Source: Anaerolineales bacterium (lineage in GTDB: Bacteria; Chloroflexota; Anaerolineae; Anaerolineales; UBA11579). Taken from it: 64,000 bases of DNA. Both the position numbers and the translations under genes were made by a program. Positions within the stretch are counted from its first letter, which is position 1. Every line of letters starts with the position of its first letter. The stretch covers positions 167,801-231,800 of the forward strand of contig OY760066.1 in the NCBI GenBank assembly GCA_963662985.1, in the 5' to 3' direction. The notes beneath the pieces are model-generated. The model saw only the letters and a program-made list of their open reading frames with translations, searched no databases and was not told the DNA's origin. Below, piece by piece: positions 22,349-40,830 of this stretch.

Positions 22349-22381
22349 CAGAGGAGTTATGAAAGTAACTCCTCTTTTTGT
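22349..22381 (+). terminator. Rho-independent terminator (or attenuator) after PTS EIIC
   Basis: AGAGGAGTTAtgaaagTAACTCCTCT followed by TTTTTG. Confidence 0.65.
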
Positions 22382-22417
22382 ATAATTTAAAAATTAAGTA
22401 TAACAATTAAAGGGTAA

Positions 22418-25117: not shown

Positions 25118-25121
25118 GCGC

Positions 25122-25158
25122 TAAAACACTCACTAATTAGTGAGTGTTTTTTTATTTT
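25122..25158. terminator. Bidirectional intrinsic terminator between convergent GH38 and PNPOx-like genes
   Basis: AAAACACTCACTaattAGTGAGTGTTTT with T-runs on both sides. Confidence 0.7.
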
Positions 25159-25967
25159 GAAAATTCGAGCAATACAAGATCTTTGTTTTCTTTGAAATAA
25201 TTGTTGTTGGTTTGATCAAATTTGTTATACATTTCTTGAATTGCCTGTTGGGATGTGTTGATGTTTACTTTTGTTTTAAAGTGATTGTCTTTTCCATCAT
25301 ATATCATACAAACAGGATCTTTTTGAAAATATTTAATCTTTTTGCTTTTTTGTTTTGTCAAAATATAATATGTTTCATTTTCTATATAGGCACTCATGAC
25401 TTTTTCTTTGTCGCCATATCGCATGAGAATTAGGCGACTATGTTCAAATTGTTTTTCACCATGTTCCCCTTTTGCCAATGCGATAACTTGGTCGTGATGA
25501 TCGATAATAAATGATTGTTTGAAGCCAAGATTAAAGATGCCATCGATAACTTTTAATTCAAATAATTTCCCATGATGTTGATTTAAGATATGTTTAAATA
25601 TTTTGATCTCATCATCCGAAAGCTTTTGGTAAACTTTTTTGGGTTCTTCAACTTCTTTCGCAGAAAAACGATAAGTAATATTTTTTCTAAAAATCGCTGG
25701 GACTGACAATTGATCTGCAGGAATGAGTATGCCAGCAAGATTTGCATTTTTCATATTAAAAAAAGATTCTACATCAGGGCCAATTAATACAAAATGCTTG
25801 CCATCTATAAAACGATAGATAACAGTATCAATTTTTGGATTGCCTTGTTGATCTACGGTTGAGAGAATGATGGAATCGAATTGTGAACAAAAACCTGATA
25901 ATAACAGCTTTGCCTCTGCTAAGCTGATTCGGTTTCGAATTGCTTCCATTCTGGGATTTGTTTTCAT
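25152..25967 (-). CDS. Hypothetical protein. Possibly a PNPOx-like/HugZ-type heme-utilisation protein (tentative, based on context with iron/heme ABC importer).
   Basis: 271-aa soluble protein with no strong motif recognised. It is last in a co-directional block with an iron-chelate/heme-type ABC transporter. Confidence 0.3.
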   Translation of the reverse strand: MKTNPRMEAIRNRISLAEAKLLLSGFCSQFDSIILSTVDQQGNPKIDTVIYRFIDGKHFVLIGPDVESFFNMKNANLAGILIPADQLSVPAIFRKNITYRFSAKEVEEPKKVYQKLSDDEIKIFKHILNQHHGKLFELKVIDGIFNLGFKQSFIIDHHDQVIALAKGEHGEKQFEHSRLILMRYGDKEKVMSAYIENETYYILTKQKSKKIKYFQKDPVCMIYDGKDNHFKTKVNINTSQQAIQEMYNKFDQTNNNYFKENKDLVLLEFSK

Positions 25968-26022
25968 TTTTATCCTTAAATTCCCCTAGTAAAAGGGACT
26001 CCTTTTACTAGGGGAGATATAT

Positions 26023-27051
26023 CTATTCAATCACTGAACCAAGTTCAGATACAATGGTTGCGAGTGAGGTGTAACCACCTACTGTTAGATACCATTGTTC
26101 ACCAGAAAGATAGATGATGTGTGCATTTTGACCGGCTTTGGTGTGATTAACAAAAGCATTGTCTAAAGTGTCTGAGGCAAGCACGTCTGAAGAGGCTGTG
26201 ACAACGCCTCGATCAATTACAAAAATATAATTTGGATCAATTTCGGCGATAAATTCAAAGGAAATTGTTTTACCATGCTTGTTGACTTCTGCATCAATTT
26301 GATCTTGCGAAACAGGGCTGACAAAGTTAAAGGTGTTGAATACAAATCCATAACGGCTGGATTCTTCTGGACCATATGCGTTAATCTCTTTGCCTGTGGC
26401 AATCAACATCAAGGCATCTCGATTTTCTAATTTTGCAATAGATTCGCTGGTTTGTTCCACATTTTCTTGAAGTTCTGCAATCATTGTGCTTGCAAGTTCC
26501 TCTTTTTGATAAATGGAAGCTAATAATTCTACATTTGCAAATACAGTGTCCACAATTAATGGATTATCAATCCCTGGATATGAAAGGTAAACAACGGGGG
26601 CAATTTCTGCCAAATCTTCATAGACACTTGAGGATCGCGCTGAGATAAAAATTACCTCAGGCATAAGACCAGCAATGGCTTCATAGTCTGGTTCAAACAT
26701 AGTACCAACGATTGTGGTGTCTGTAACAGCATCTGCTAGATATGCAGGAATCAAAGAGCTAATCCCCGTAATGGAATCCTCAACTCCTAGTGCGATGAGA
26801 GTGTCTAGGGCAGCGACATCTAGGGCAACCACTTTTGTTGGGTTAAGCGGTACTTCTACTGTGCCTAACTTATGCTCAATGGTAATGGTTGAAGAAGTTT
26901 GTTCTTCTGCCATTGTTTCATTTTCTGGTTCTGTTTCCATAGAACTATTTTCTGTTTGATTACTTTCTACGGAATCTGTTGGGGTGTTGCATGCTGTGAG
27001 CAGCATACTTAATACTAAGAGTACGAGTAGTACAGATAGTAGCTTTTTCAT
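26023..27051 (-). CDS. Lipoprotein, iron-siderophore/heme-type periplasmic binding protein (cluster A-2 / FhuD-FecB-like SBP)
   Basis: Lipobox LLTACN followed by a Ser/Thr/Glu-rich linker. FecB-like fold features (VVALDVAALDTLIALGV ... EVIFISARS). Confidence 0.7.
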   Translation of the reverse strand: MKKLLSVLLVLLVLSMLLTACNTPTDSVESNQTENSSMETEPENETMAEEQTSSTITIEHKLGTVEVPLNPTKVVALDVAALDTLIALGVEDSITGISSLIPAYLADAVTDTTIVGTMFEPDYEAIAGLMPEVIFISARSSSVYEDLAEIAPVVYLSYPGIDNPLIVDTVFANVELLASIYQKEELASTMIAELQENVEQTSESIAKLENRDALMLIATGKEINAYGPEESSRYGFVFNTFNFVSPVSQDQIDAEVNKHGKTISFEFIAEIDPNYIFVIDRGVVTASSDVLASDTLDNAFVNHTKAGQNAHIIYLSGEQWYLTVGGYTSLATIVSELGSVIE

Positions 27052-27102
27052 AATTTCTCCTAACTAAAAATATAACAAGGATAACGATACATATCACTTG
27101 GA

Positions 27103-27858
27103 TTAATAATATAAACACATGGGTTTATTGTTTTTTTGAATTATTTCAAATTCAATATCATAAATCTCTTTTAGCAATTTACTCGAGACTATTTCATCAA
27201 CACCTCCTTCTCTCACCAGTCGTCCATCTTTCAAAGCAATCAGATAATCTGAATAACTTGCTGCAAAATTGATGTCATGCAGGACAAGGACGATGGTTTT
27301 GTTTTTTTGGTCTACTAATTTTCTGAGTAATTGCATGGTTTCTACCATGTATTTCATATCTAGATTGTTAAGAGGTTCATCTAGCATGATATAGTCTGTA
27401 TCTTGCGCTAATAGCGCAGCGATAAAGGCTCTTTGTTTTTGTCCCCCCGAGAGTTGATCTATATATTTATCTTTAATATCATATAAATCCACAAATTTAA
27501 GTGCTTCAATTATTTTTTGGTGATCCTGTTTGGTGAGTTTGCCTTTGGTATGCGGATAACGGCCAAATGAGACAATCTCAAAAATTGTAATTTTGATATT
27601 GGTGGAATTTGATTGTTTTAAAATACTTAACTTTTTAGCGAGATCAAGCGAATTCCAATCAATGAGTTGAGTTTCATCAATGATGATCTGTCCTGATTGA
27701 TGAGTTAATAATCGAGCAATGATACCAAGTAAGGTGGATTTACCAGCGCCATTTGGTCCAATAATAGTTGTGATTTTATTATTGGGAATATTCAAAGTTA
27801 CATTTTGTAACACTTGTTTTTTGCTATATGCCTTTGTGATGTGATTGACTTGAATCAT
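27103..27858 (-). CDS. ABC transporter ATP-binding protein (FecE/FhuC family)
   Basis: Walker A GPNGAGKST. ABC signature LSGGQKQR. Walker B IMLDEP. Confidence 0.85.
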   Translation of the reverse strand: MIQVNHITKAYSKKQVLQNVTLNIPNNKITTIIGPNGAGKSTLLGIIARLLTHQSGQIIIDETQLIDWNSLDLAKKLSILKQSNSTNIKITIFEIVSFGRYPHTKGKLTKQDHQKIIEALKFVDLYDIKDKYIDQLSGGQKQRAFIAALLAQDTDYIMLDEPLNNLDMKYMVETMQLLRKLVDQKNKTIVLVLHDINFAASYSDYLIALKDGRLVREGGVDEIVSSKLLKEIYDIEFEIIQKNNKPMCLYY

Positions 27859-28802
27859 GTTAAGTTCTCCTGAATTAGCAAAGTGATGAAATAAATTCCG
27901 CCAATTAGATTAATCACGATACTGATGGGGACTCCTACGCCAAACAATTGCTCGGTGAGGATATGCCCAAAAGATAAGATGAAAATGCCAAATAAAATAA
28001 CTGCTGGTAATAAGTATTGATGTTTATAAGTGTTCAAAAAGGTTAATCCAAGATTGACTATCAAGAATCCGAGAAAAGTGATTGGTCCAACCAATGCTGT
28101 GGAAACAGCGGTTAAAATCAATACTAGTGTTAAGTTGAGTAACACCTCTTTTTGATAATCAAGTCCTAAATTAATGGCTGAATCTTTTCCTAAAGCTAAG
28201 ACATCTAATTTTTGGTGTCTGGAAAAAATGAATATGAAGATTGATAAAACAATCAAGATTAATATCCAAAGAAGGTTTTCGTTTAAATTATTGAAACTTG
28301 CAAACATAAAAGATTGATAATATTCAAAGCTAGCTGGGTCCAACAACATTTGAATCACCGAGACCATACTTTGAAACAAGGTTGAAAAAATTATTCCAGA
28401 TAATAATAATTGGAATAAACCATCAAAACGAGCGAACATAATTTTGAATAATCCTATCCCAAAGATGACTAAGATTGAAAAGTTGAGTACAAAATTCAGA
28501 TTTGCATTCGTTACCAATTGGGATGTAGGAGAAATTAGAAAAATGACTAGCACTTGAATAAGTAAATAAAGAGAATCTAAGCCAAAGATACTGGGAGTGA
28601 TGATGCGGTTGTTGGTGATTGTTTGGAATAAAACGGTACTTGAACCAATTGAAATTGCGGTGATAATAATTCCAGATGCTTTAATCCCTCTTTTTTTGAT
28701 TGCATAATTAAATATCTCAAAGTTTATGTCAAAAAATAAAACAAAAATAATACTAATTGCTGCTAAAATGCCTAAGAGAAGAACTTTCTTTTTAATGCTC
28801 AT
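27855..28802 (-). CDS. Iron-chelate ABC transporter permease (FecCD family)
   Basis: Polytopic membrane protein with a FecCD-type TM pattern. 4-nt overlaps with neighbours. Confidence 0.75.
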   Translation of the reverse strand: MSIKKKVLLLGILAAISIIFVLFFDINFEIFNYAIKKRGIKASGIIITAISIGSSTVLFQTITNNRIITPSIFGLDSLYLLIQVLVIFLISPTSQLVTNANLNFVLNFSILVIFGIGLFKIMFARFDGLFQLLLSGIIFSTLFQSMVSVIQMLLDPASFEYYQSFMFASFNNLNENLLWILILIVLSIFIFIFSRHQKLDVLALGKDSAINLGLDYQKEVLLNLTLVLILTAVSTALVGPITFLGFLIVNLGLTFLNTYKHQYLLPAVILFGIFILSFGHILTEQLFGVGVPISIVINLIGGIYFITLLIQENLT

Positions 28803-29758
28803 GAACGATCTCCCCGAAACAAAATTAGCAGAAAAATCAATGTTCCTAAAATACCAATTACCAGCCCAATCGAAATCTCATAAGGATAAATAATAAGACG
28901 GCTGATGCTATCAGCAATTAAGAGAAATAATGCTCCGGGGATACCAACTATCCAAATATTTTTTTCAAGATTATCTCCAAATAAGTGTGAGACGATATTG
29001 GGAATGATTAAACCAACAAATGGTAAATTTCCGACAATAATAACCGTTGAAGCTGAAACAATGGCAATAAGTATTAATCCAATAGTAATGAAGAAATTAT
29101 AGTTAATGCCGATATTTGTAGAAAAGTCTTGCCCTAACCCTATGATGGTGAATTGTTTTGCGTATATAAATGTTAGGATGATTGCGGGGATGACTATATA
29201 AAGCAATTCATAGCGACCTGAAATGACTAATGACAAATTTCCAACAAACCAACCATTTAATGTTTGCAAAAAATTATATGAATAAGCTAAAAAAGTTGAG
29301 AATGAAGTGAAAATACTAGCTAACATGAGGCCAATCAAGGGGACATAGATGATGGTTTTGTATTTTATTTTCCTAAGAATCAACATAAAAATAATGGTTG
29401 AAAGGAATGAAACTGAAAATGCAAAGCCCATTTTTATAAAAGTGGAACTGTTACCAAAAAAAACAACTGAAATTGCCAACCCCAATTGCGCACCACTAAT
29501 GCCACTTGAAGTTGTGGGAGAAACAAATTTATTATTGCTAATTTGTTGAAATACAAGACCAGCGATGGAAAGCCCAAACCCAGCAATTATGAGGCTGATT
29601 GTGCGGGGTAAGCGGCTATTGAGGATTATGAATTGTGAAGTAGATTCTTTGATCCAAATTTCAGAAAAATCGATCTGACCTACACCAATGAAGATTGAGG
29701 CAATTGTTGCGATGAAAAATAGGACTATTATGGATAATTTTGGAATGGAAAAACTCAA
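28799..29758 (-). CDS. Iron-chelate ABC transporter permease (FecCD family)
   Basis: Polytopic membrane protein (…LNSRLPRTISLIIAGFGLSIAGLVFQ…), a FecCD hallmark region. Confidence 0.8.
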   Translation of the reverse strand: MSFSIPKLSIIVLFFIATIASIFIGVGQIDFSEIWIKESTSQFIILNSRLPRTISLIIAGFGLSIAGLVFQQISNNKFVSPTTSSGISGAQLGLAISVVFFGNSSTFIKMGFAFSVSFLSTIIFMLILRKIKYKTIIYVPLIGLMLASIFTSFSTFLAYSYNFLQTLNGWFVGNLSLVISGRYELLYIVIPAIILTFIYAKQFTIIGLGQDFSTNIGINYNFFITIGLILIAIVSASTVIIVGNLPFVGLIIPNIVSHLFGDNLEKNIWIVGIPGALFLLIADSISRLIIYPYEISIGLVIGILGTLIFLLILFRGDRS

Positions 29759-30068
29759 GTCATCTCCTGTATTTGTAAAAACTCTTTTATTAGTTAGCGT
29801 ATACTAATGTCATTACGGCGATTATACTGGTTGGGTTTAAATGGCGCAAGGTTATTTATATTTTTTAGATATATATATTAATTATTATCGCTCCAATATT
29901 TTCTGAGCACTATCGTCAGCCTTTTGCTTTCTATTTTTTTATCGGAGATTTGAGAAGTTGTTTGAAGTTTGTTTCTTAAGGTTTATAATTTTTTTCATGG
30001 ACTTAAGTCAACTATATTTTTCAAAAACGTTTACTGAAAACAACATTGATCTAGATTCATCCACGGCA

Positions 30069-30557
30069 ATGAAGAGAATTGCTGTGCGAGGGATTGTGGT
30101 GAATGATGGCAAGCTGTTAGTGGTTCACTCTCAATTAAAAGGGGATTATAAGTTGCCAGGTGGCGGAAAAAAAGAAGGTGAGACAGAGCTGCTTGCTTTG
30201 CAAAGGGAAATCGGAGAAGAGTGCGGAGTTTTGGTTGATGGGGAAGCTTTTGTAAAAGTTGGAGAAGTGTTGCAATATAAAAGCTCGATTGAAATAGAGA
30301 TTGATGTTTTTATTAATGATTCGAGATATTATTTTTGCGATGTGTCTGAGATTGGCTATCAGGATGTGGCAAGGAATCTTGATGATTATGAAGATGCTTT
30401 GGGCTTTGAAGCTATGTGGTTGGAAATTGATGAGATTTGGGCTGTTCAGAAAACTTTGCTTGGAAAAAAAGACTCTACCCCAAACAAATGGATTCGACGC
30501 GAGTTTTGGGTATTTGATATGTTAAAAAATCACAAAAAAGAATTTCTGTTGAAATAA
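30069..30557 (+). CDS. NUDIX hydrolase
   Basis: Nudix box GGGKKEGETELLALQREIGEECGV. Start placed at MKRIAVRG (ATG 30069). The track ORF begins further upstream at 29958. Confidence 0.7.
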   Translation: MKRIAVRGIVVNDGKLLVVHSQLKGDYKLPGGGKKEGETELLALQREIGEECGVLVDGEAFVKVGEVLQYKSSIEIEIDVFINDSRYYFCDVSEIGYQDVARNLDDYEDALGFEAMWLEIDEIWAVQKTLLGKKDSTPNKWIRREFWVFDMLKNHKKEFLLK

Positions 30558-30642
30558 CTTTTTGAGCGAATTATTTATTTTGGGATAAGATTGATAGTAT
30601 AATAGATGTTCTAGAATAATTACATAAAAAGGATGTGAATAT

Positions 30643-31272
30643 ATGAATATTTGGTGGGATTCTCTTCTGCCGTTGGGGCGATTTTTTTATCTTATTGCGA
30701 TTCCATCTACATTAGTTTTATTGATCCAGTTTGTGATGTCATTGTTGGGCTTGTCTCATGACACTGATCTGGATGTACAAAATTTAGATGGGCATGTGGA
30801 TTTCAACTTAGATCATGACTTTGATATTAGTGATGGGCATGAGGTTTTTTCTGCTGATTTCCAATTTATTTCGTTCCGAAGTATTATTGCGTTTTTGACA
30901 ATTTTCTCGTGGACGGGAATTGTGATGATGTCGAATGGCAGCAGCGCAATTTTGACAATGGTTGTGTCAGTGGCGGCTGGATTGTTGGCGATGTTCGTAA
31001 TTGGATATCTGTTCTTTTTGGCGACAAAATTACAATCGAGTGGCAATATTAGTTATCAGAATGCAGTTGGGTCTACTGCGGAAGTTTATATTCCGATTAA
31101 TGAAAATACAAATTTTCAAGGAAAAGTGCAAGTTGTGGTGCAGGAACGTTTGATTGAAGCGAGTGCTATCACAAAAAATAAAAAGGGATTTTCAACAGGG
31201 GAAATTGTGCAGGTTGTTGGACTGGTTGGTTTGTCTACCCTTGTTGTTGATGAATTAAGTCCAGAAAAATAA
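30643..31272 (+). CDS. NfeD-family membrane protein (YuaF-like, C-terminal OB-fold), partner of flotillin
   Basis: N-terminal TM helices plus a C-terminal beta-barrel region (GKVQVVVQERLIEASAITKNKKGFSTGEIVQVVGLVG). Immediately upstream of a flotillin gene, as in B. subtilis yuaF-floT. Confidence 0.7.
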   Translation: MNIWWDSLLPLGRFFYLIAIPSTLVLLIQFVMSLLGLSHDTDLDVQNLDGHVDFNLDHDFDISDGHEVFSADFQFISFRSIIAFLTIFSWTGIVMMSNGSSAILTMVVSVAAGLLAMFVIGYLFFLATKLQSSGNISYQNAVGSTAEVYIPINENTNFQGKVQVVVQERLIEASAITKNKKGFSTGEIVQVVGLVGLSTLVVDELSPEK

Positions 31273-31288
31273 TCTTTAGGAGAAAAAA

Positions 31289-32713
31289 ATGGATTTTTTA
31301 ATGCTGATTATTGTTGTAATCGTCTTGCTGTTGGGGACATTTTTATCTTTATTATCAAGATATAAAAAATGCCCTTCAGATCAAATTCTTGTGATCTATG
31401 GGAAAGTTGGAAGAAATTCCACTGGTGACCATAAGAGTGCAAAATGTATTCATGGTGGGGCTGCCTTCATTTGGCCAATCATTCAAGATTATCAATTCTT
31501 GAGCTTGACACCCATCTCTATTAATGTGATTTTGACAAATGCATTGAGCCGCCAAAACATTCGTATCGATGTACCTTCCCGTTTTACGGTTGGTGTTTCT
31601 ACGGAAGCTGGTGTGATGCAAAATGCAGCAGAACGTTTGCTTGGTTTGAAACAAGCTGAAATCGAAGAATTGGCCAAGGATATTATCTTCGGGCAATTAC
31701 GTTTGGTTGTGGCAACCATGGACATTGAAGAAATTAACACAGACCGAGACAAATTCTTGTCTGCTGTTTCTTCTAACGTGGAAACTGAATTGAAGAAAAT
31801 TGGTTTGCGATTGATTAACGTGAACGTGACCGATATTAAGGACGAATCTGGTTATATCGAAGCTTTGGGTAAGGAAGCAGCTGCAAAGGCTATTAATGAT
31901 GCAAAGAAAAGCGTGGCTGAAAAGAACCGCGATGGTTCCATCGGTGAAGCTTTGGCAATGCAAGATCAACGTATTCAAGTGGCAGAAGCAAACTCAAAAG
32001 CAATTGAAGGTGAAAACCAAGCAAAAATTACAATTGCAAATTCTGAAGCATTGCGACGGGAAAAGTTAGCTGAAGCAGAACGTAAGGCAACGATTGCAGA
32101 ACGTGTTCAAGCAGCTCAAGCTTTGGAAGAATCATTTGAAGCCGAAAAACTTTCGGAACAAGCACGTGCTATCCGTGACCAAGCTACAAAAGAAGCTGAC
32201 ATCATTGTTTCTGCAGAGATTGCAAAACGACAAGCTGAAATCAACGCAGCTGCTATGGCAGCAAAAACCCGTTTGGAAGCACAAGGTCAGGCAGATGCTA
32301 TCTTCTTGAAATTGGAAGCACAAGCAAAGGGTGCCCAAGAAATTTTGACGAAACAAGCAGAAGGCTTCAAAGAAATTGTGAAGGCCGCTGGCGGTAACTC
32401 CAATGAAGCAGTGAAGTTGATGATTGCTGAAAAGATGGAACAATTGGTGGCGATTCAAGTAGAAGCTATCAAGAATTTGAAGATCGACAAAGTTACAGTG
32501 TGGGACAGCATGGGCAATGGCGAACCAGCAACTGCAAACTTTTTATCTGGGATGACTAAATCAATTCCGCCAATGAATGAATTATTTGAAATGGCTGGGT
32601 TGGAATTGCCAGAGTTTTTGGGCAAGAAAAAGGATGATGGTTTGACGGTGGAAGTTGAAGCTAAAAAAGAAACCCCAAAAGCTGACACTGAAAAGAAAGA
32701 CAAAGAAAAATAG
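31289..32713 (+). CDS. Flotillin-like SPFH/band-7 protein (FloT-like) with C-terminal EA-rich coiled-coil repeats
   Basis: N-terminal TM, SPFH domain, long Ala/Glu-rich repeats (AEAERKATIAERVQAAQALEE ... RQAEINAAAMAAKTRLEAQGQAD). Confidence 0.85.
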   Translation: MDFLMLIIVVIVLLLGTFLSLLSRYKKCPSDQILVIYGKVGRNSTGDHKSAKCIHGGAAFIWPIIQDYQFLSLTPISINVILTNALSRQNIRIDVPSRFTVGVSTEAGVMQNAAERLLGLKQAEIEELAKDIIFGQLRLVVATMDIEEINTDRDKFLSAVSSNVETELKKIGLRLINVNVTDIKDESGYIEALGKEAAAKAINDAKKSVAEKNRDGSIGEALAMQDQRIQVAEANSKAIEGENQAKITIANSEALRREKLAEAERKATIAERVQAAQALEESFEAEKLSEQARAIRDQATKEADIIVSAEIAKRQAEINAAAMAAKTRLEAQGQADAIFLKLEAQAKGAQEILTKQAEGFKEIVKAAGGNSNEAVKLMIAEKMEQLVAIQVEAIKNLKIDKVTVWDSMGNGEPATANFLSGMTKSIPPMNELFEMAGLELPEFLGKKKDDGLTVEVEAKKETPKADTEKKDKEK

Positions 32714-32745
32714 GTCTTTCTAAGAATAGAATAACAAATTGAGTA

Positions 32746-32782
32746 AAAAGTAGGGATTATAACTTCCCTACTTTTTTATTTA
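32746..32782 (+). terminator. Rho-independent terminator after flotillin gene
   Basis: GTAGGGAttataactTCCCTAC followed by TTTTTTATTT. Confidence 0.75.
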
Positions 32783-32834
32783 ATTCAATATTGCTCAAAA
32801 TGTAAACACTTATTCTTTTTTAATAAAACGGTGT

Positions 32835-32860
32835 TCAAATGGATGTTTGTTGTTTATAAT
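32835..32860 (+). promoter_or_regulatory. Candidate promoter of etf/glt-like operon (TTCAAA ... TATAAT)
   Basis: Perfect TATAAT at 32855-32860. Weak -35 with sub-optimal 14-nt spacing. Confidence 0.3.
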
Positions 32861-32872
32861 ATTCTAATTGTA

Positions 32873-32898
32873 TGACGATTGGAGGATTTCAATCGTCA
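32873..32898 (+). promoter_or_regulatory. Perfect 9-bp inverted repeat TGACGATTG-N8-CAATCGTCA in leader of etfB (candidate operator / leader hairpin)
   Basis: Read directly. The dyad lies between the TATAAT and the etfB RBS/ATG (32931). Confidence 0.5.
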
Positions 32899-32930
32899 AG
32901 AAATCATTCTTATATTATTGGAGACATTTT

Positions 32931-33764
32931 ATGCGAATCATTGTACCGATCAAACAGGTACCCGAGACGACTAACGTCAAAATGGATCCGGAAACTGGCA
33001 CGATGCTACGTTCTGGACTAGCTAGTATTATTAATCCCCTTGACCTAAATTCTTTAGAAGCAGCGCTTCAACTTAAAGAACAGATGCAGCAGCGCCAGCA
33101 GAACCAGCAAAATAAGGATGATGACCATGAAGTCATTGCAATAAGTATGGGCCCGAAGAATGCCCACTATGCTTTGAAAGAGGCGATTGCAATGGGTTGC
33201 GATCGCGCTTTTTTATTAAGCGACCGGAAATTTTCTGGGGCTGATACGTGGGCAACTGCGTATGTTTTGACACAAGCGATCAAGAAAATCGGTGATTTTG
33301 ATTTGATTGTGTGCGGTGAGCGCGCGTCTGATGGGGACACTGGACAAGTGGGTCCGGGGATTGCGGCCTTTTTGGGGTTGCCATTGGCGACCTATGTGAG
33401 CCGGGCGCAAATGATCGCTGAGGATGTGGTGCAAATTGAGCGATTGGTGGAAGACGGAACGGAAATCTTGCGTACCCCTACGCCAGCAGTGCTGACTGTG
33501 TTGAAAGAGGCTGGCTATCCGCGGTTCCCCACTTTGAAGCAAAAATTAGCGGCTGAAGAAGTGGAGATACCCACTTGGGGACCGGATGAACTGGAAGCGG
33601 ATGCGGAGAAGATCGGGCTGAAAGGCTCCCCCACCCGAGTAGTGAAGATTGACAAACCACAAGTTGGACGAAAGGCAGAGCTTGTTGCCGGCAGAGATAA
33701 AGCCGACCAAGACAATGCGGTGCAACGTGTGGTTGATTTTCTTAAAGAACGAAATTTGCTATAA
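32931..33764 (+). CDS. etfB: Electron transfer flavoprotein beta subunit (EtfB/FixA)
   Basis: MRIIVPIKQVPETTNVKMDPETGTMLRSG matches the canonical EtfB N-terminus. ...LIVCGERASDGDTGQVGP... is also EtfB-like. Start set at ATG 32931 with GGAG 9 nt upstream. The track ORF starts at 32868. Confidence 0.85.
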   Translation: MRIIVPIKQVPETTNVKMDPETGTMLRSGLASIINPLDLNSLEAALQLKEQMQQRQQNQQNKDDDHEVIAISMGPKNAHYALKEAIAMGCDRAFLLSDRKFSGADTWATAYVLTQAIKKIGDFDLIVCGERASDGDTGQVGPGIAAFLGLPLATYVSRAQMIAEDVVQIERLVEDGTEILRTPTPAVLTVLKEAGYPRFPTLKQKLAAEEVEIPTWGPDELEADAEKIGLKGSPTRVVKIDKPQVGRKAELVAGRDKADQDNAVQRVVDFLKERNLL

Positions 33765-33773
33765 GGATGAGGT

Positions 33774-34811
33774 GTGAGCATGAGTATAGCTATTGATAAA
33801 AGTGAATGGAAAGATGTGTGGACATTGGCAGAGTTTAACCACGGTAAGATGCATGGCGTCTCATTTGAATTGTTGGCATGGGGGCGTGACTTGGCAGATG
33901 ACCGTGGGTGCAAGCTGTGTTCTGTGGTTTTGACAGATGAGATTGGTGATGCTGAATTGAATCAATTATTTGCACATGGTGCCGATATGATTTATGTGGT
34001 GACACACCCCGCTTTGAAGAACTTCATCACGGAGATGAATGCAAAAGTGGTACGTAAGTTGGTGGAAGATTTGAAGCCAGAAGTGTTTTTGGCTGCTGCA
34101 ACAACAACAGGACGAACGGTGATGCCTTATGTGGCGATTCAAACACGGGCCGGTTTGACAGCAGATTGCACAGGTTTGGCGATTGACCCAGAAACGGGCG
34201 AATTACATCAAACCCGTCCGGCAATTGGGGGAAACATTATGGCGACAATCAAGACCCCTGATGCACGACCGCAAATGGCAACGGTGCGACCAAAGTCTAA
34301 GAAGCCGTTGACTGCAGATGAGAGCCGCTCTGGGGATGTGGTGCGGGTGGAAATGCCCGAAGAATTCTTTGTGACCAAAATGACTATGGACACTTTTATT
34401 GCAAATGATTTAAATGAAATACCCGTGGAAGAAGCAGACATTGTAGTTTCTGGTGGTGCTGGAGTTGGCAATTTAGGCAACTTTGCGCTGCTGGAAGACT
34501 TGGCAGATGTGTTGGGGGGTACGGTGGGAGTGAGCCGAGTGCCAGTGGACCAAGGATGGCGACCGTATATTAAGCAAGTGGGGATGTCAGGCAAGACAAT
34601 TGCACCGAAGTTATATATTGCGTGTGGAATCTCTGGGACGGTGCATCATATTGTGGGGATGCAAACTTCGGAAACGATTGTGGCTATTAACACTGATCCT
34701 GAAGCAAAAATCTTCCAAGTGGCTGACTTAGGCGTGGTGGGGGACTTGACCAAACTACTACCGAAACTAACTGCAAAAATCAAAGAAGAAAAAGAAAGGA
34801 TGGCCTTGTGA
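33774..34811 (+). CDS. etfA: Electron transfer flavoprotein alpha subunit (EtfA/FixB)
   Basis: C-terminal FAD-binding region (PKLYIACGISGTVHHIVGMQTSETIVAINTDPEAKIFQVADLGVVGDL) is diagnostic of EtfA. Confidence 0.85.
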   Translation: MSMSIAIDKSEWKDVWTLAEFNHGKMHGVSFELLAWGRDLADDRGCKLCSVVLTDEIGDAELNQLFAHGADMIYVVTHPALKNFITEMNAKVVRKLVEDLKPEVFLAAATTTGRTVMPYVAIQTRAGLTADCTGLAIDPETGELHQTRPAIGGNIMATIKTPDARPQMATVRPKSKKPLTADESRSGDVVRVEMPEEFFVTKMTMDTFIANDLNEIPVEEADIVVSGGAGVGNLGNFALLEDLADVLGGTVGVSRVPVDQGWRPYIKQVGMSGKTIAPKLYIACGISGTVHHIVGMQTSETIVAINTDPEAKIFQVADLGVVGDLTKLLPKLTAKIKEEKERMAL

Positions 34812-37378
34812 TGGCAACTCCTATCAAAAAAACAAGTCGTTATCATATTGAAACTGCTCCTGCACCGGCACCTTTTGATTATCCGGTGGATTTTCGTAAA
34901 GATGTGAAGGATGATTATGTAAAATATGGGCATCAAGGATTGCCCTATCATCGCACTGGGGGAGACCCACATTGGACGCCACAAGTGATTTCTCAAATTT
35001 GGTATCAAGCAGAAACAGGGAAGATTCCGATTTCGGGGGCTGGCTATGGTGGTGGATTTGCAGAACATGGCTTTGATGGTATTTGGCTGGATATGTCTGA
35101 AATTGTGCGCCCTACTCGAGATGGAATCCATGGTCGGGAATATATTTCTACGATCATTGACTTGGGAGTGCGGTTGCCTCAATTGCATTTTAGCGAAGAA
35201 GGATTGTTGGTGGAAGAGACACCAAAGATGCTCTCAATCCCAGTGCCAATTGTGTTTGACCCAATCCCAATGAAAATTCCGGGACGAGCATTACATCTAT
35301 CTGTGGCGAAAGCGGCACATGCTTTGAAAGTGTTTGCATTGATTAAATTTGAAGATCTTGCAGAGGATTTATTGCCCTATCAAGATGCAATTATCCCCTT
35401 ATTGGAAGATTTGGATAAATTGGACAGTGACTGGGTGAAACAAGCCCCGATGGTGGCAGTGGCCGCTGATGGCAAGACTGCAATGGCACGCTATGCTGAG
35501 GTGACAAAGGCTTTGCCTGAAGCAACGGTGATGATGCGATTGCCAATGACACCGAGCACTAAAGAGACAGTGCATGCTTTGATCGATGCAGGATGTGCTT
35601 CTTTTCATTTTTATGCGGATGACCAAGCCGAAGAATTTGAGGGGACACGGTCTTTGCCAAAGGCTTTGATCGAATTGCACAATGAATTGATTGACCGACG
35701 CACAAGAGATTTGGTTTCGATTGTGGTGAGCGGTGGGATTGCAAATGCAGAACATTTGCCTAAGTCGATCATCTGCGGAGCGGATGCAGTGGCGATTGAT
35801 TTTGTGACGATTTCCGCTTTGGGATGCGCTTTGTGGGCAGATATTCGACATGGTTGCAAAGTGGAAAAGGGTGAGATTGACCCTGAGTGGGGGGCACAAC
35901 GATTGATCAATTTAGTGAATGCATGGCGTGACCAATTGCTGGAAGCGATGGGAGCAATGGGACTGCGAGAAGTGCGCCGAATGCGGGGTGAAATGGGACG
36001 AGCGATGTTTTATGATGAAGAAGAAGCACGCTTCCGAAAATTGTTCACTCGACCAGAAGGGGTGGATGTGCCAATGTTGCCGGCATTGAAGGCGAATGAT
36101 GCAGAAATTGAAGGTGATTTGCGTTGGACAACCCAATTATTATTGGCTACGGCAGAACAAGCACGCAGTGGTAAGCCGGGAACGTCTAAGTTGGAATATC
36201 GACATGGGCGCTCAAATGGCGGCTTTGACCGAATGCGATTCTTATTTGAATTAGAAGAAGATATGAGCAAGTTTGCGTGGGATGAAGATGCTGTGGACGA
36301 AGTGGACCTGAGCTTGGCCTTGAACCATCGTGAAGACGGACGGCCTGAATTGACGATTCCGCAACCTTGGTATGGCGGGGGGATGTCGTTTGGGTCCGTG
36401 AGTGTGAACACGATGCTGTCACGTGTGCGTGCAGCAGAAGCTTTTGATTCGTTTATTTCCACTGGCGAAGGTGGGTATCCGGAAGATTTGATTCCCTATT
36501 CTAAACATATGATTACTCAAGTGGCAACAGGGCTGTTTGGGGTTCGGGAAGAGACAATCCAACGCGCACCAATTGTGGAGTTTAAGTATGCTCAAGGTGC
36601 CAAACCCGGCTTGGGAGGGCACTTGTTGGGTAGCAAGTCTACGGAAGCAGTGGCAAAAATGCGCCAAGCGGTGCAAGGGATTAGTTTGTTCTCTCCGTTC
36701 CCATTCCATAGTGTGTATTCGGTGGAAGACCATAAAAAGCATGTAGACTGGATTAAGACGGTGAATCCGGAAGCGTTGATTTCGGTGAAAGTGTCTACGC
36801 CAACAGATGTGGATATGGTGGCAGTGGGCTCCTATTATGCAGGGGCGAATATTTTGCATGTGGATGGTGCGTACGGAGGTACGGGGGCAGCACCGGAAAT
36901 TGCGAAGAAGAATATTGCGTTGCCGATTGAATATGCGATTAGCCGCATCCATCATTTTTTGATTAATGAAGGGATTCGCGACGAATTAGTGGTGATTGCT
37001 TCAGGTGGTGTGCGCACGGCATTTGACATTGCAAAGGCGATTGCGTTGGGGGCTGATGGAGTGGTGATTGGCACAGCAGATTTGGTGGCGATTGGATGTG
37101 TTCGGTTGGCATGTTGTGAAAAGGATGATGGCTGTCCGTTTGGGATTACTACGACGGATCCAAATTTAGCGAAGCTGGTGCAAGTGGAAGAATCGACAGA
37201 ACGAATTAAGAATATGTATGCTTCATGGAAAATCCAATTAGCGACTATTTTGAAGAAATTGGGGATGCGCTCGATTGGTGAATTGCGCGGACGGACGGAC
37301 CTGTTGGTGTATTTGGATAAAGAAGGTGATTCCTATCAAGGGACAAAAATAAATCATAAGGAGAACATCCATGCATAA
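34811..37378 (+). CDS. Glutamate-synthase-family FMN/TIM-barrel protein with two tandem GltS-domain-2-like modules (GlxC / archaeal GltB-like); second module carries Cys cluster
   Basis: The C-terminal module has the Glu_synthase FMN-domain signature (…ASGGVRTAFDIAKAIALGADGVVIGTADLVAIGCVRLACCEKDDGCPFGITT…) and a G-rich FMN-phosphate loop. The N-terminal module repeats the same pattern in degenerate form (…IVVSGGIANAEHLPKSIICGADAVAIDFVTISALGCALWADIRHGCK…). ATG 34811 overlaps the etfA stop. Confidence 0.8.
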   Translation: MATPIKKTSRYHIETAPAPAPFDYPVDFRKDVKDDYVKYGHQGLPYHRTGGDPHWTPQVISQIWYQAETGKIPISGAGYGGGFAEHGFDGIWLDMSEIVRPTRDGIHGREYISTIIDLGVRLPQLHFSEEGLLVEETPKMLSIPVPIVFDPIPMKIPGRALHLSVAKAAHALKVFALIKFEDLAEDLLPYQDAIIPLLEDLDKLDSDWVKQAPMVAVAADGKTAMARYAEVTKALPEATVMMRLPMTPSTKETVHALIDAGCASFHFYADDQAEEFEGTRSLPKALIELHNELIDRRTRDLVSIVVSGGIANAEHLPKSIICGADAVAIDFVTISALGCALWADIRHGCKVEKGEIDPEWGAQRLINLVNAWRDQLLEAMGAMGLREVRRMRGEMGRAMFYDEEEARFRKLFTRPEGVDVPMLPALKANDAEIEGDLRWTTQLLLATAEQARSGKPGTSKLEYRHGRSNGGFDRMRFLFELEEDMSKFAWDEDAVDEVDLSLALNHREDGRPELTIPQPWYGGGMSFGSVSVNTMLSRVRAAEAFDSFISTGEGGYPEDLIPYSKHMITQVATGLFGVREETIQRAPIVEFKYAQGAKPGLGGHLLGSKSTEAVAKMRQAVQGISLFSPFPFHSVYSVEDHKKHVDWIKTVNPEALISVKVSTPTDVDMVAVGSYYAGANILHVDGAYGGTGAAPEIAKKNIALPIEYAISRIHHFLINEGIRDELVVIASGGVRTAFDIAKAIALGADGVVIGTADLVAIGCVRLACCEKDDGCPFGITTTDPNLAKLVQVEESTERIKNMYASWKIQLATILKKLGMRSIGELRGRTDLLVYLDKEGDSYQGTKINHKENIHA

Positions 37379-38774
37379 ATTGACGACCTCCCGAATTGAT
37401 CGGATTTTGGATTCGCGCCGAAAGCTCTATGACGATGCTGTTTTGCACCCGAATAATTCTCGTGAAGAAGCCGCAGAAGGCGGTTGTGGTGTAGTGGGGG
37501 TGACGAGTTCCTTCCCAGTGGCGGGACGACATTTCTTCCCTGCGGCAGAGCAAATGCATAACCGTGGGAATGGGAAAGGTGGCGGAATTGCGGCGGCTGG
37601 TTTGAACCCGGCACAAATGGGTGTTACGGCGGATGTTTTGCGCGATGCAACGATGTTGCAAGTGGCTTATTTGGATGCGGATTGTGTGGCTGAAGTGGAA
37701 GCGGAATGTATCTTCCCTGTCTATGATGTGTTGACATCCTATCGAGTGGACACGGTGGAGGATTACCGAGAGATTGAAGGATTAGAAATTCAACCACCGG
37801 ACGTGGTGCGCTATTTTGTGCGGGCAAAAAAAGACTCATTGGCTGATTTTGCCAAGGATAATGCGCTAGAAGACTTGACCGCGCGCGAATTGGAAGATGA
37901 ATTTGTATATCGCAATAGCTTTTTCCTAAACACAAAATTCTATGCAAGTTTGGGTGAACAACGGGCTTTTGTGATGTCTCATGGGCGCGATTTGTTAATC
38001 TTTAAAATTGTGGGGTATGCAGAAGAAGCGGCGAAATATTATAAGCTTGATGAGATGGAAGCGCATGTGTGGATTGCCCATCAACGCTATCCGACAAAAG
38101 GGCGAGTGTGGCACCCCGGGGGAGCGCACCCCTTCATTGGTATGAACGAGGCTTTGGTGCATAATGGGGATTTTGCGAATTATCATGCAGTGTCGGATTA
38201 TTTGAAACAACGGAATATCAAACCTTTATTCTTGACCGATACGGAGATTAGCGTGTTGTTGTTTGATCTGTTGGATCGTACCTATCATTATCCGTTGGAA
38301 GCCATTGTGGAAGCATTGGCACCAACCACAGAACGGGATTTTTTGAAATTGCCAGCAGAAAAACAAACGCTCTATCGCCAAATTCAAAAAACACATATCC
38401 ATGCTTCTCCTGATGGACCATGGTTCTTCATCATTGCACGCAGTCAACCTGAAAAGGACTTGTGTCAATTGCTGGGGATTACGGATACCTCGATGCTGCG
38501 CCCACAAGTGTTTGCGTTGGTCGACTCTGAGATGGAAGGCAAACGCTATCAAATGGGACTGTTGGGCTCTGAAAAACAAGCGATTGATGCAACCTTGAAG
38601 AGCTTGAGCAAAGAATATACGGCGATTCCGACAGTGGCAGACCGTTATTGGAATGCACGAGGGGGGTCTTATAATGATGGCGGTTCCTTCACTTTTTCGG
38701 TGCGCAAGAAAAGCCCCGATGCCCCCTATGGGAGCATGCGCGAGTTGTGTGCCGCAACAAGTTTGGAGAGGTGA
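37371..38774 (+). CDS. Class-II (Ntn) glutamine amidotransferase domain protein, glutamate-synthase type (GlxB / archaeal GltA-like)
   Basis: CGVVGV candidate nucleophile Cys. HQRYPTKG and HNGDFANY resemble the GltS GATase RxSTNT / NGEINT motifs. Overlaps the upstream gene by 8 nt with an AAGGAGA RBS. Confidence 0.7.
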   Translation: MHKLTTSRIDRILDSRRKLYDDAVLHPNNSREEAAEGGCGVVGVTSSFPVAGRHFFPAAEQMHNRGNGKGGGIAAAGLNPAQMGVTADVLRDATMLQVAYLDADCVAEVEAECIFPVYDVLTSYRVDTVEDYREIEGLEIQPPDVVRYFVRAKKDSLADFAKDNALEDLTARELEDEFVYRNSFFLNTKFYASLGEQRAFVMSHGRDLLIFKIVGYAEEAAKYYKLDEMEAHVWIAHQRYPTKGRVWHPGGAHPFIGMNEALVHNGDFANYHAVSDYLKQRNIKPLFLTDTEISVLLFDLLDRTYHYPLEAIVEALAPTTERDFLKLPAEKQTLYRQIQKTHIHASPDGPWFFIIARSQPEKDLCQLLGITDTSMLRPQVFALVDSEMEGKRYQMGLLGSEKQAIDATLKSLSKEYTAIPTVADRYWNARGGSYNDGGSFTFSVRKKSPDAPYGSMRELCAATSLER

Positions 38775-40006
38775 TTGAAGCACCAAAAGGACAAACACAT
38801 TGGAACCCAACTGGCGAAGAACAATTGGTGGATGATGGGTTTGCTGAGACTATATTGGAAAAAGTGCTGGCGGGAGGAGATGATTCCTTTGAAGCCATGA
38901 CAGCACCTGTACAAAAAGATTTGGGCAAGTGGATATCCAACTATAGTTACGAAGCAATTGCTGGGGCTGTGGACGCTTGGGTGAAGGCTGGGGCGGATGT
39001 GGCAAAGACTAAGGCAATTTTAGCATTATTAACCCGTTTGCGGGATAGTATGTTTGACCCGCAAGAAAAACGACGGGCTTCGATCTTGGATATTGTGGAT
39101 GCAGGGATAAATGCGCTGTTAGACCGCGTACCTTCTTTTGATGCAAAGGCAAAACTCTCTCGGATTACTTGGGAGACACGTGATGCGCTACAAGCTCCGA
39201 CGCATGTGGATGCTATTTTGGTGGTGGATGTGAGTGGCTTCCCAGCGGAAGGGGATGAAGGACCGGGAATCTTCCAAGCAAATGCGTTCCGAATGGGATG
39301 GCACCATTTGGTGTCTTATCGCTGGGCGGGACAACGTTTCTTAGGATGTAATTTGAGCAAGGTCACAGATGCGCTGCGCTTTGATGTTTATGGCTCCCCG
39401 GGGGATTATTTTGCAAGCGGGATGGATGGCGACGAGGTGGCAATGATGATCCACACGAATGCACAAGACCAATTGGCGCAGATTTTCAACCACGGGACAT
39501 TGGTGATCTATGGTGATGTGGGGCAAACGTTTATGTATGGCGCAAAAGGCGGAAAAGCTTTTGTGCGCGGAAACGTGGCCGGACGTCCGTTGATTAATGC
39601 AGTGGGTGCACCGCGAGTGGTGATCAATGGAACCTGTTTGGATTATTTGGCAGAATCGTTTATGGCAGGCGATCCACTGAATGGGGGTGGTTTTGTGATT
39701 TTGAATGGGATTGAATTTGATGACCATGGACAAATGGTTGCTTTGGATGAACCTTATCGCGGGAATAATTTATTCTCTTTGGCATCTGGGGGAGCACTCT
39801 ATGTGCGCGATCCCTATGCGAAGTTGGATGAAAATCAACTGAACGGCGGTATGTTTGCAGATTTGAGTGAAGCGGATTGGAATTTGATCCTGCCCTATTT
39901 AGAAGAAAATGAAGCCTATTTTGGCATTGATGTGGATGCTTTGCTGACTGTGGATGGCAAGGTGATGGCTCCAGAAAAGGTTTATCGTAAAATTTGCCCG
40001 AAGTAA
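38771..40006 (+). CDS. GXGXG-motif beta-helix protein (glutamate synthase C-terminal domain-like; GlxD / archaeal GltC-like)
   Basis: VIYGDVGQTFMYGAKGGKAFVRGNVAGRPLINAVGAPRVVINGTCLDYLAESFMAGD matches the GXGXG repeat domain of GltS. Start proposed at GTG 38771 (GTGA overlap with the upstream stop, GGAGAGG RBS). The track start is 38747. Confidence 0.75.
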   Translation: MIEAPKGQTHWNPTGEEQLVDDGFAETILEKVLAGGDDSFEAMTAPVQKDLGKWISNYSYEAIAGAVDAWVKAGADVAKTKAILALLTRLRDSMFDPQEKRRASILDIVDAGINALLDRVPSFDAKAKLSRITWETRDALQAPTHVDAILVVDVSGFPAEGDEGPGIFQANAFRMGWHHLVSYRWAGQRFLGCNLSKVTDALRFDVYGSPGDYFASGMDGDEVAMMIHTNAQDQLAQIFNHGTLVIYGDVGQTFMYGAKGGKAFVRGNVAGRPLINAVGAPRVVINGTCLDYLAESFMAGDPLNGGGFVILNGIEFDDHGQMVALDEPYRGNNLFSLASGGALYVRDPYAKLDENQLNGGMFADLSEADWNLILPYLEENEAYFGIDVDALLTVDGKVMAPEKVYRKICPK

Positions 40007-40030
40007 GTTTGGATTAAATTTTTGTTTGAT

Positions 40031-40064
40031 GAAGACCCTCTTGCAATTGAGAGAGGGTTTTTTG
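40031..40064 (+). terminator. Rho-independent terminator ending the etf/glt-like operon
   Basis: CCCTCTtgcaattgagAGAGGG followed by TTTTTTG. Confidence 0.75.
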
Positions 40065-40419
40065 TGCATATTTTTTGTCTAATATTTTTTGACAGAATTG
40101 GACAGGTGTCAAGCTATTTTTGGACACTTTTTGGACACTTTTTTGACAGGTGTCCAATTTTTTCCGGGCTGAATTTTGGCATATAGAGAGGCATGATGTA
40201 GGAGAGATGACATATGGAGGGTCTTGAGGGCTAAATTTTGACAGTTTAGCCAAATATTTTTTTATGTGTCAAATTTTGCCAGTAGCTTTAATGTTCTATT
40301 TATTATACCATATTACTTGGTTCTTTTTACCTCATTTTGCATTTAATTTAGGCGGGTAAGAATAAATAAAATTCTCCATCTGAACTATAATTGTAATAGA
40401 GTAACTGAAAGGACAAACA

Positions 40420-40779
40420 ATGACCTATCGTGAGTTATCGCCAGAAGAAAAACGTGTGATCTTGAACAAGGGCACAGAAATACCTTATACAGGAGAATAT
40501 ACAGATTTTAAAGGTGCAGGGACTTATCATTGTAAACAATGTGATGCAGCGCTTTATCGCTCTGTGGATAAGTTTGATTCGGGCTGCGGTTGGCCTAGCT
40601 TTGACGATGAGATTCCGGGTGCTGTGGAACGTAAGTTGGATGCAGATGGGCGCCGAACAGAGATTTTGTGCGCGAATTGTGGCGGACATTTGGGACATGT
40701 GTTCGAAGGAGAGCGAATGACGCCGAAGAATACGCGCCATTGTGTGAACTCAATCTCGATGGTGTTCAAAGGTGAGTGA
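40420..40779 (+). CDS. msrB: Peptide-methionine (R)-S-oxide reductase MsrB (zinc-binding type)
   Basis: CKQC ... CANC zinc-ligand pairs. Catalytic [13 protein letters not shown] motif. Confidence 0.9.
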
Positions 40780-40793
40780 AATAATATAAAATT

Positions 40794-40830
40794 TCAAAGG
40801 AGTTTGAAAAGACAAACTCCTTTTTTTTAT
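40794..40830 (+). terminator. Rho-independent terminator after msrB
   Basis: AAAGGAGTTTGaaaagaCAAACTCCTTT followed by TTTTTTTAT. Confidence 0.75.

Follow-up and report, generated by a model that had tools for sequence, protein, structure and literature searches.

The DNA analyzed here (the window) is a stretch of 64,000 nucleotides (nt) from contig OY760066.1, positions 167,801 to 231,800. Near its center lies an operon in which etfB and etfA, encoding an electron-transfer flavoprotein (Etf), precede two glutamate synthase-like genes (glt), the second of which is split by a frameshift. A flotillin gene lies upstream of the operon and msrB lies downstream (Table 1). An initial annotation, made from the sequence alone, had described the operon and msrB as a strongly GC-enriched tract of about 8 kb that was likely acquired horizontally. 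The GC enrichment was confirmed, but comparison with related genomes placed the tract within a larger block of about 19 kb that is nearly identical to the same region of a sister species, represented by OY781052.2. No integrase or transposase was found in the window by Pfam, as the annotation had stated; a tRNA scan likewise found no tRNA, and an Rfam scan found no RNA feature.

Table 1 Features and compositional segments of the window. GC3, GC content at third codon positions; PTS, phosphotransferase system; TPR, tetratricopeptide repeat; ORF, open reading frame.
Feature	Position	Strand	GC (%)	GC3 of genes	Basis or remark
Segment	1-21.8 kb		29.4	0.18-0.29	
Tract nearly identical to sister species, read as a recombination tract	21,807-40,779				starts within PTS EIIC, ends with the msrB stop codon
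Segment	21.8-32.85 kb		36.6	0.27-0.38	
FecCD-type ABC transporter cassette, five genes (hypothetical, Peripla_BP_2, ATPase, two FecCD)	25,152-29,758	-			Pfam
Flotillin (SPFH/Band_7)	31,289-32,713	+	40.9		Pfam; conserved left neighbor of the operon
Terminator-like hairpin after flotillin	32,745-32,776	+			
Operon	32,931-40,006		47.8	0.44-0.49	
etfB (277 aa)	32,931-33,764	+			Pfam ETF; start MRIIVPIKQ aligned with homologues
etfA (345 aa)	33,774-34,811	+			Pfam ETF, ETF_alpha; best PDB matches CarE, 4KPU_A, 7KOE_B
Glutamate synthase large-subunit-like protein (856 aa), central and FMN domains	34,808-37,378	+			PF01645, E 4.6e-98
Amidotransferase-like half of second glt gene (467 aa)	37,371-38,774	+			weak GATase_6; cut by frameshift
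1-bp deletion, TTGGTG to TTGTG	38,746-38,747	+			splits the GATase-GXGXG gene; unique to the window
GXGXG half of second glt gene (419 aa)	38,747-40,006	+			PF01493, 43.1 bits (cut-off 32.5)
Terminator-like hairpin and T-run after operon	40,032-40,061	+			inverted repeat, sequence
TTGACA/TGTCAA palindromes and 11-nt tandem (TTTTTGGACAC, two copies) upstream of msrB	40,083-40,281				repeat search
msrB (119 aa)	40,420-40,779	+	46.7	0.42	SelR and PRK05508 matches; separate transcription unit
Bidirectional terminator-like hairpin	40,796-40,823				just outside the right breakpoint
TPR gene			32	0.22	
7,108-aa ORF	42,668-63,994	-	42	0.35	

The same locus in related genomes and the 19-kb block

The clade sample comprised the window, OY781052.2 (loci L001, L006 and L091), ctg97219c (L092) and ctg9490c (L093), with about 40 kb of each. 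The initial annotation had held that its reading would be refuted by the same island at this locus in all related genomes. This was the outcome: the flotillin-etfB-etfA-glt-msrB array occupies the locus in each of the three relatives that could be retrieved (OY781052.2, L092 and L093). Gene order across the block in L001 and L092 is that of the window, including the FecCD cassette. The order in L093 is PTS, GH38, NUDIX, NfeD, flotillin, etfBA, glt, msrB, TPR and the giant gene, with a 125-aa ORF in place of the FecCD cassette. Identity between L093 and the window was 79-82% at the nucleotide level and uniform over the left flank, the operon and the right flank, and identity at four-fold degenerate sites, which are saturated, was 0.35-0.65. 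Because L093 shares the array with a divergence equal to that of its flanks, these alignments indicate that the ancestor shared by the clade carried the operon at this position. Insertion into the window genome alone is excluded.

The synteny does not extend far beyond the clade. Flotillin identity is 96-98% among clade members and drops to 81-83% against Eubacteriales-labelled and related contigs, which have no such operon. Outside the clade, 85 flotillin loci were inspected, and in none of them did etf-glt come after the NfeD-flotillin pair; only in such distant loci, whose synteny has broken down in any case, is the operon absent beside flotillin. A metagenome scan with flotillin found no further clade members, only relatives of at most 81% identity. 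One additional contig, L086, is syntenic with the window over 5.6-21.9 kb, is 74-77% identical to it and has 28.8% GC; its GC3 follows that of the window from gene to gene, a likeness that indicates that low GC is old in this lineage.

The contigs of the clade are small, at 0.51-0.63 Mb (OY781052.2, 524 kb; ctg97219c, 512 kb; ctg9490c, 613 kb; the contig of the window, 629,747 bp). The final "c" of contig names perhaps stands for circular, as it does with some long-read assemblers, and the contigs could be tiny genomes, secondary replicons or mislabelled sequences. An origin from a giant phage or plasmid was not supported, as the glt product had no match in IMG/VR and the block had no megablast match in PLSDB.

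For comparison across the whole region, L091 and L001 were joined into one OY781052.2 sequence of 41.8 kb. Identity between this sequence and the window was 60-79% at 5.6-21.8 kb, rose to 95-97% from position 21,807 to about 40,770, and fell to 74% beyond. The left breakpoint lies inside the PTS EIIC gene, where a dense series of mismatches ends at position 21,806 and no further one occurs before 21,958; the right breakpoint coincides with the msrB stop codon. Four-fold-site identity followed the same course, at 0.71-0.93 inside the block versus 0.32-0.53 outside. Within the block, all three pairwise identities among the window, OY781052.2 and L092 were about 0.95-0.97, and in the right flank OY781052.2 and L092 remained about 0.96-0.97 identical versus 0.74 between the window and OY781052.2. 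A patch at 32.5-34.5 kb, which spans the flotillin-etfB spacer, etfB and etfA, is only 82-92% identical between the window and either OY781052.2 or L092, while these two are 96-99.8% identical to each other; the block itself is therefore mosaic.

The simplest reading of this pattern is a single homologous recombination event that brought the allele of the OY781052.2 species into the window lineage. Import into the window lineage is favored because it requires one event rather than two. Composition is compatible with an exchange but not informative on its direction: the mean GC3 of ten left-flank genes is 0.30 in OY781052.2, 0.22 in the window and 0.21 in L086, and that of the ordinary genes of the block is 0.33 in both the window and OY781052.2, so that the tract matches the background of the other lineage, which fits either polarity of transfer. 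Mosaic blocks formed by allelic replacement have been described in naturally transformable bacteria. The block resembles such homologous recombination imports in its synteny on both sides, the abrupt change of identity, a breakpoint within a gene (EIIC), the lack of mobility genes and a composition that matches the other lineage. It differs in that the two genomes are only about 72-74% identical outside the tract, in its internal mosaic patch and in having a putative direction only. Composition alone had misplaced the left boundary by about 11 kb, and the true borders became visible only against relatives; of the two ends of the block, only the right one agrees with the boundary that had been proposed for the tract.

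An indel lies next to the right breakpoint. Between msrB and the TPR gene, OY781052.2 and L092 carry a sigma-70 gene of the extracytoplasmic function (ECF) type and a 779-aa PD40/Tricorn-like gene (L001 positions 16,118-19,025; L092 positions 16,126-19,033). Both genes are absent in the window and L093, and the breakpoint falls just before this indel.

Composition of the GC-rich tract

GC content in the window, 37.0% on average, reaches its peak in the operon; 428 non-overlapping windows of the operon's size had a mean of 35.5% (sd 5.7, maximum 44.1). Genes of the tract have GC3 values of 0.42-0.49, compared to 0.18-0.38 in all other genes of the window. The dinucleotide signature of the tract is distant from that of the 1-21 kb segments (delta* 124-146) and closer to that of an Anaerolineae flank (delta* 48). 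The tract is accordingly the strongest compositional outlier of the window and has the atypical composition of a genomic island, measured against a mosaic window rather than a genome-wide baseline. These properties favored the model of the initial annotation, in which an 8-kb island at 32.85-40.83 kb was recently transferred from a GC-rich donor and AT-rich spacers mark its junctions.

Several details of that description required revision. An abrupt change of composition after the flotillin terminator is present as a step at 32.85 kb, but this step lies inside a larger block that is elevated from about 21.8 kb, and the window as a whole is a mosaic of segments that differ in composition. The flanks, described as AT-rich, are so at 1-21 kb, but the genes of the left flank at 21.3-32.7 kb already have 31-41% GC. 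Where intrinsic terminators had been described as the bounds of the tract, terminator-like hairpins are present after flotillin, the operon and msrB. The 413-bp spacer between the operon and msrB is AT-rich (32.7% GC) and contains short repeats, as had been reported, but these are of the TTGACA/TGTCAA type together with an 11-nt tandem and are not att-like. Repeats shared by the borders of the tract were at most 9-10 nt long, no better than in shuffled sequences. The long antisense ORFs that had been listed for the tract exist at exactly the coordinates assigned to them.

Codon usage in the tract also differs from the description. GCG, GGC, CGC and CTG, which had been said to dominate, are not the leading codons; the commonest are GTG, TTG, GAA, GAT, GCA and ATT. 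GTG accounts for 81% of valine codons and TTG for 62% of leucine codons, compared to 12% for CTG, and GGC makes up 20% of glycine codons. Among two-fold codons, TAT supplies 96% of tyrosine and CAA 89% of glutamine. The enrichment at third positions is confined to G (G3 0.31), and C3 is 0.14. Glycine, alanine, arginine and proline together constitute 28.5% of the residues of the operon proteins versus 14% in genes of the low-GC flank. Translational selection as the source of this codon pattern was judged unlikely, as only G-ending codons are raised and C-ending two-fold codons (Tyr, His, Asn, Asp and Phe) are rare.

The GC contrast has two components of roughly equal size. GC3 rises from about 0.22 in native genes to about 0.33 in ordinary genes of the block and to about 0.46 in the operon; roughly half of the contrast is due to the block and half to the operon's own excess. 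In every lineage of the clade the operon is richer in GC than its neighboring genes, with a GC3 excess of about +0.12-0.15 in OY781052.2 and about +0.06 in L093, where the operon has 39-44% GC and GC3 of 0.24-0.36 against a neighbor mean of about 0.23 and msrB has a GC3 of 0.20. In 59 further loci whose flanks extend for 6 kb or more, operon GC exceeded flank GC by a mean of 3.1 points (sd 2.6, maximum 10.0). This mean excess, together with the richness of the enzymes in Gly, Ala, Arg and Pro, shows that the GC excess of the operon is partly intrinsic. A spread of GC3 was also observed in the co-directional PTS/GH38 cluster at 18,558-25,117, where values range from 0.18 to 0.38 (regulator 0.20, EIIB 0.18, EIIC 0.38, GH38 0.34); since EIIC GC3 is also high in L086 and L093, part of the GC3 spread is gene-specific.

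Third-position GC skew, read on the plus strand, is positive in all 32 window genes regardless of coding strand (+0.01 to +0.64), which looks like a strong replication-strand bias. In the tract it is +0.27 to +0.47, and the operons of L002 and L010 lack such a positive skew. The relative synonymous codon usage (RSCU) of the operon correlates with that of msrB (0.81) and of ordinary block genes (0.65), compared to 0.07-0.37 with the L010 and L002 operons. The skew and codon usage fit a long residence in which C3 has fallen to the host level and G3 has been kept high. A possible cause is that strand-asymmetric mutation has ameliorated, in part, an operon that was formerly GC-rich; codon selection is the alternative.

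Origin of the operon and of the block

The operon and its neighbors differ in their affinities. More than 3,500 homologues of the 856-aa Glt protein were recovered. After a 98% match, the nearest were 71-74% identical at the amino acid level (80% over a partial one) and came from Anaerolineae or Chloroflexota, as did all named top matches. Genes etfBA lie directly upstream of glt only in the window clade, in L002-L007 (Anaerolineaceae) and in L010 (Anaerolineae Ch9); the remaining loci have two glt genes without etfBA upstream. In two archaeon-labelled loci, the glt pair is followed after about 3.5 kb by an EtfA-like gene of 43-44% identity (L043 positions 15,967-16,941; L080 positions 6,626-7,615), and the Etf-glt link may recur outside the window's sub-clade. 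LarC (GC3 0.20) has lineage-specific matches of 67-70%, followed by named matches in Clostridia only at 47-50%. Flotillin has matches of 81-83%, one of them labelled Eubacteriales, followed by named Clostridia at 73-76%, and we take a PTS with an Mga/PRD regulator to be firmicute-like. The affinity of the operon is thus with Anaerolineae versus Clostridia for flotillin and LarC, as judged from database matches, which makes an older cross-lineage origin of the operon plausible.

Our preferred explanation, which we hold with moderate confidence, has two layers: a resident operon with a GC excess of its own, and a 19-kb block recombined from the species of OY781052.2 and L092. In the first layer, the array is resident at this locus throughout a small low-GC clade, its excess arising from conserved enzymes rich in Gly, Ala, Arg and Pro and possibly also from descent from a GC-richer operon of the Anaerolineae type that has adapted only in part to its present genome. 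In the second layer, positions 21,807-40,779 would have been exchanged with the OY781052.2/L092 species, probably toward the window; the GC3 backgrounds are about 0.30 in that species and about 0.22 in the window. The block, and the operon most of all, would stand out because the GC3 background of the donor species exceeds that of the window. The GC-rich tract is on this account mostly an ordinary phenomenon. Of the proposed horizontal acquisition, a recombinational import and a possible older cross-lineage origin are retained, but the description does not hold for the borders, for how recent the event was or for what kind of event it was.

Several observations weigh against this explanation. 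The sample is small, with four clade genomes and about 40 kb apiece. The 95% identity of the block could be the baseline of a species, with the flanks at 72-74% being the imports. OY781052.2 is labelled "Anaerolineales bacterium", and should this label hold, the operon would be native and its clostridial-looking flanks foreign. The residual GC3 excess in OY781052.2 and L093 could reflect codon selection rather than incomplete amelioration, the only outgroups for polarizing substitutions being GC-biased and saturated at synonymous sites, and L093 may be AT-richer overall (TPR gene GC3 0.13), which would inflate its contrast with the window.

One alternative dispenses with a horizontal origin of the operon. 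It holds that the clade is an AT-shifted branch of Anaerolineales in which the operon is ancestral and has kept its GC through protein constraint and codon selection, and that the PTS, LarBCE and flotillin genes were acquired. The label of OY781052.2 agrees with this, as does the finding that the operon homologues at 71-74% are all from Anaerolineae and have the same gene order. Operon GC lies above that of the flanks in most genomes, and the excess persists in L093 despite saturated synonymous sites. However, flotillin nests among Clostridia with 81-83% identity to Eubacteriales-labelled contigs, and the named matches of LarC are all Clostridia. Three diverged lineages agree in the synteny and the AT richness of the low-GC flank, which is therefore not a recent addition, the G3-only enrichment with its preference for TAT and CAA is unlike ordinary translational selection, and the 19-kb identity block is left unexplained. 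We consider this alternative unlikely. The conflict between the Anaerolineales label of the sister and its clostridial-looking gene content deserves checking; no relevant paper was found in the literature on reduced low-GC Anaerolineales.

The exchange could also have had the reverse polarity, the window and OY781052.2 being one species (about 95% identical genome-wide, GC3 about 0.33) and the low-GC DNA of both flanks (1-21.8 kb and from 40.8 kb onward) having been imported into the window lineage from an AT-richer relative. The identity of the block to OY781052.2 (95-97%) equals that between OY781052.2 and L092 (97%), the window genome does not appear as a separate species representative among the matches listed, and the flanks resemble L086 in composition. 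Such a history nevertheless requires two separate imports that both happen to end at one 19-kb remnant, where the preferred explanation requires only one event. Within the flanks, moreover, the window, OY781052.2, L086 and L093 are roughly equidistant (70-84% at the nucleotide level), as in a species tree, and OY781052.2 and L092 remain about 96-97% identical through the right flank, where the window is at 74%. Reverse polarity therefore appears rather improbable.

The original model of a recent 8-kb island, despite the compositional evidence and the Anaerolineae affinity of the nearest outside homologues, is very improbable: the operon occupies the same locus in OY781052.2, L092 and L093 with flank-like divergence in L093, identity with OY781052.2 does not change at 32.85 kb but rises at 21.8 kb, mobility genes, tRNAs and flanking repeats are missing, and the codons of the tract follow the local strand skew and do not resemble those of a donor (RSCU r = 0.07-0.37 against the L010 and L002 operons). 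The tract shares with classical genomic islands, which are tRNA-linked, integrase-bearing and sporadic in distribution, its atypical GC, GC3 and dinucleotide signature and an apparent affinity unlike that of its neighbors. Unlike them, it lacks an integrase, a transposase, a tRNA and direct repeats, is present in all retrievable relatives and has ordinary operon terminators as its borders. For genome scanning, this is a case in which a terminator-bounded GC step was misread as an island, the step being composed of a gene-intrinsic excess and a larger allelic-replacement tract.

Predicted products of the operon and flanking features

The operon is predicted to encode an EtfAB of the bifurcating type together with a split and permuted glutamate synthase of the GltB type that lacks GltD. 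For both EtfB and EtfA, the top five PDB matches were 5OL2, 6FAH, 7QH2, 7KOE and 4KPU, all of them bifurcating or confurcating Etfs; E-values for EtfB were 1e-48 to 3e-56 against bifurcating versus 1e-17 to 7e-19 against non-bifurcating Etfs. The EtfB stretch GERASDGDTGQVGP aligns with GRQAIDGDTAQVGP of 5OL2_B and is kept in four homologues; we take DGDTxQVGP to be the EtfB motif at the second-FAD/NADH site of bifurcating Etfs. Homologue alignment placed the true start of etfB at the ATG at 32,931 and not at the TTG at 32,868, and direct alignment gave 99% identity to the EtfB of L001. A Gln-rich insertion in EtfB (QMQQRQQNQQNKDDD; 33,078-33,125, residues ~50-65) is common to the window, L092 and L093 and is absent in L002 and L010.

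The 856-aa gene overlaps etfA by 4 nt and the amidotransferase gene by 8 nt, and this overlapping gene order is conserved in three lineages. Residues 525-840 of the 856-aa protein align to GltB residues 857-1175 (E 1e-51). Its predicted structure, of medium quality with a mean predicted local distance difference test (pLDDT) of 72.9, could be superposed on GltB chains along 870-935 columns (TMq 0.51-0.56, with E-values as low as 7e-27). Because this full-length model matches whole GltB chains, the N-terminal half of the protein is assigned to the GltB central domain. Cys764, Cys770 and Cys776 (GC...C.....CP.GI) are invariant in 32 homologues, and from this motif we read them as the probable equivalents of the GltB 3Fe-4S ligands. 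The amidotransferase-like half scored 26.6 bits with GATase_6, just below the cut-off of 27, and its matches to GlmS and PurF were weak. It carries AAEGGCGVVG after a 38-residue leader, conserved in five homologues, as would be expected of an Ntn amidotransferase with a pro-sequence. No gene for a GltD-type NAD(P)H subunit was found in the operon by Pfam; etfBA occupies that position in the window clade, L002-L007 and L010, and in 15 other loci the genes upstream of glt are unrelated.

The amidotransferase-like and GXGXG parts form a single gene of 878-889 aa in L001, L092, L093, L002 and L010, with 878 aa in the first three. In the window, the second half-ORF restarts at a GTG located exactly at the deletion, and translation of frame 2 continues the homologue sequence VCRNKFGEV. 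The deletion at 38,746 is either a real mutation or an assembly error, and both halves of the product could still be made.

EtfAB, in place of GltD, would oxidize NADH and deliver the electrons to the split GltB at its 3Fe-4S/FMN site, and this GltB would form glutamate from glutamine-derived ammonia and 2-oxoglutarate. Reduction of ferredoxin may be coupled to glutamate formation in the manner of Bcd-, Car- and Ldh-EtfAB. The 2-oxoglutarate/glutamate couple lies well above NADH in potential, and ferredoxin coupling is therefore thermodynamically plausible. We tentatively propose an undescribed glutamate synthase in which a bifurcating-type EtfAB, rather than GltD or ferredoxin, feeds a split, permuted GltB and couples the exergonic reduction of 2-iminoglutarate to that of ferredoxin; it would be confined to a few Anaerolineae lineages and to the low-GC clade, which possibly obtained it from them. 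Doubt attaches to this proposal on two counts: the electron path from Etf to the glutamate synthase is drawn from the conserved overlapping gene order and from similarity to solved bifurcating Etfs, and the frameshift could mean that the operon is decaying in this genome. No description of EtfAB paired with a GltD-less permuted glutamate synthase was found in the curated family libraries or literature searched. If functional, such an enzyme would tie the assimilation of nitrogen in anaerobes to their balance of ferredoxin and NADH, and, if bifurcating, it would be a new flavin-based electron-bifurcating enzyme. The two leads that merit further work are this Etf-coupled synthase and the conflict over the taxonomic label.

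Known glutamate synthases, GltBD (Azospirillum 1EA0/2VDC/6S6S and Bacillus 7MFM) and ferredoxin-dependent GltS (Synechocystis 1OFD/1LLW), provide the best sequence and fold matches of the operon Glt proteins, in which the four GltB domains are recognizable, the amidotransferase (a CGV motif after a pro-sequence) as a candidate. In contrast to these enzymes, the domains are split over two proteins and permuted, with central and FMN domains in the first and GATase and GXGXG domains in the second. Identity is about 18-21% over the fold, GATase and GXGXG are barely detectable by sequence, a GltD gene is lacking, and a translationally coupled EtfBA lies upstream. The Etf proteins share DGDTxQVGP and an oxidoreductase partner in the operon with bifurcating EtfABs (Bcd-EtfAB 5OL2, CarCDE 6FAH, Ldh-EtfAB 7QH2, EtfABCX 7KOE and the Acidaminococcus Etf 4KPU). 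They differ in that the partner is glutamate synthase-like rather than an acyl-CoA, lactate or quinone oxidoreductase, EtfA lacks a ferredoxin-domain extension, EtfB of the clade has the Gln-rich insertion, and the activity of the system is a predicted one.

The repeats upstream of msrB may form an operator array. They include the palindrome TTGACAGGTGTCCAA, and the sister OY781052.2 has one 11-nt copy fewer. In a library of 1.8 billion representatives, msrB had matches of 58-75% with almost no taxon names, one of them labelled "Candidatus Gracilibacteria". Beyond the block, the giant ORF on the minus strand is longer in relatives (8,404-8,440 aa), and its sole Pfam match is one RTX repeat. 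Its codon use is extreme (C3 0.29, G3 0.06), and nucleotide identity between lineages is only about 74-79%.

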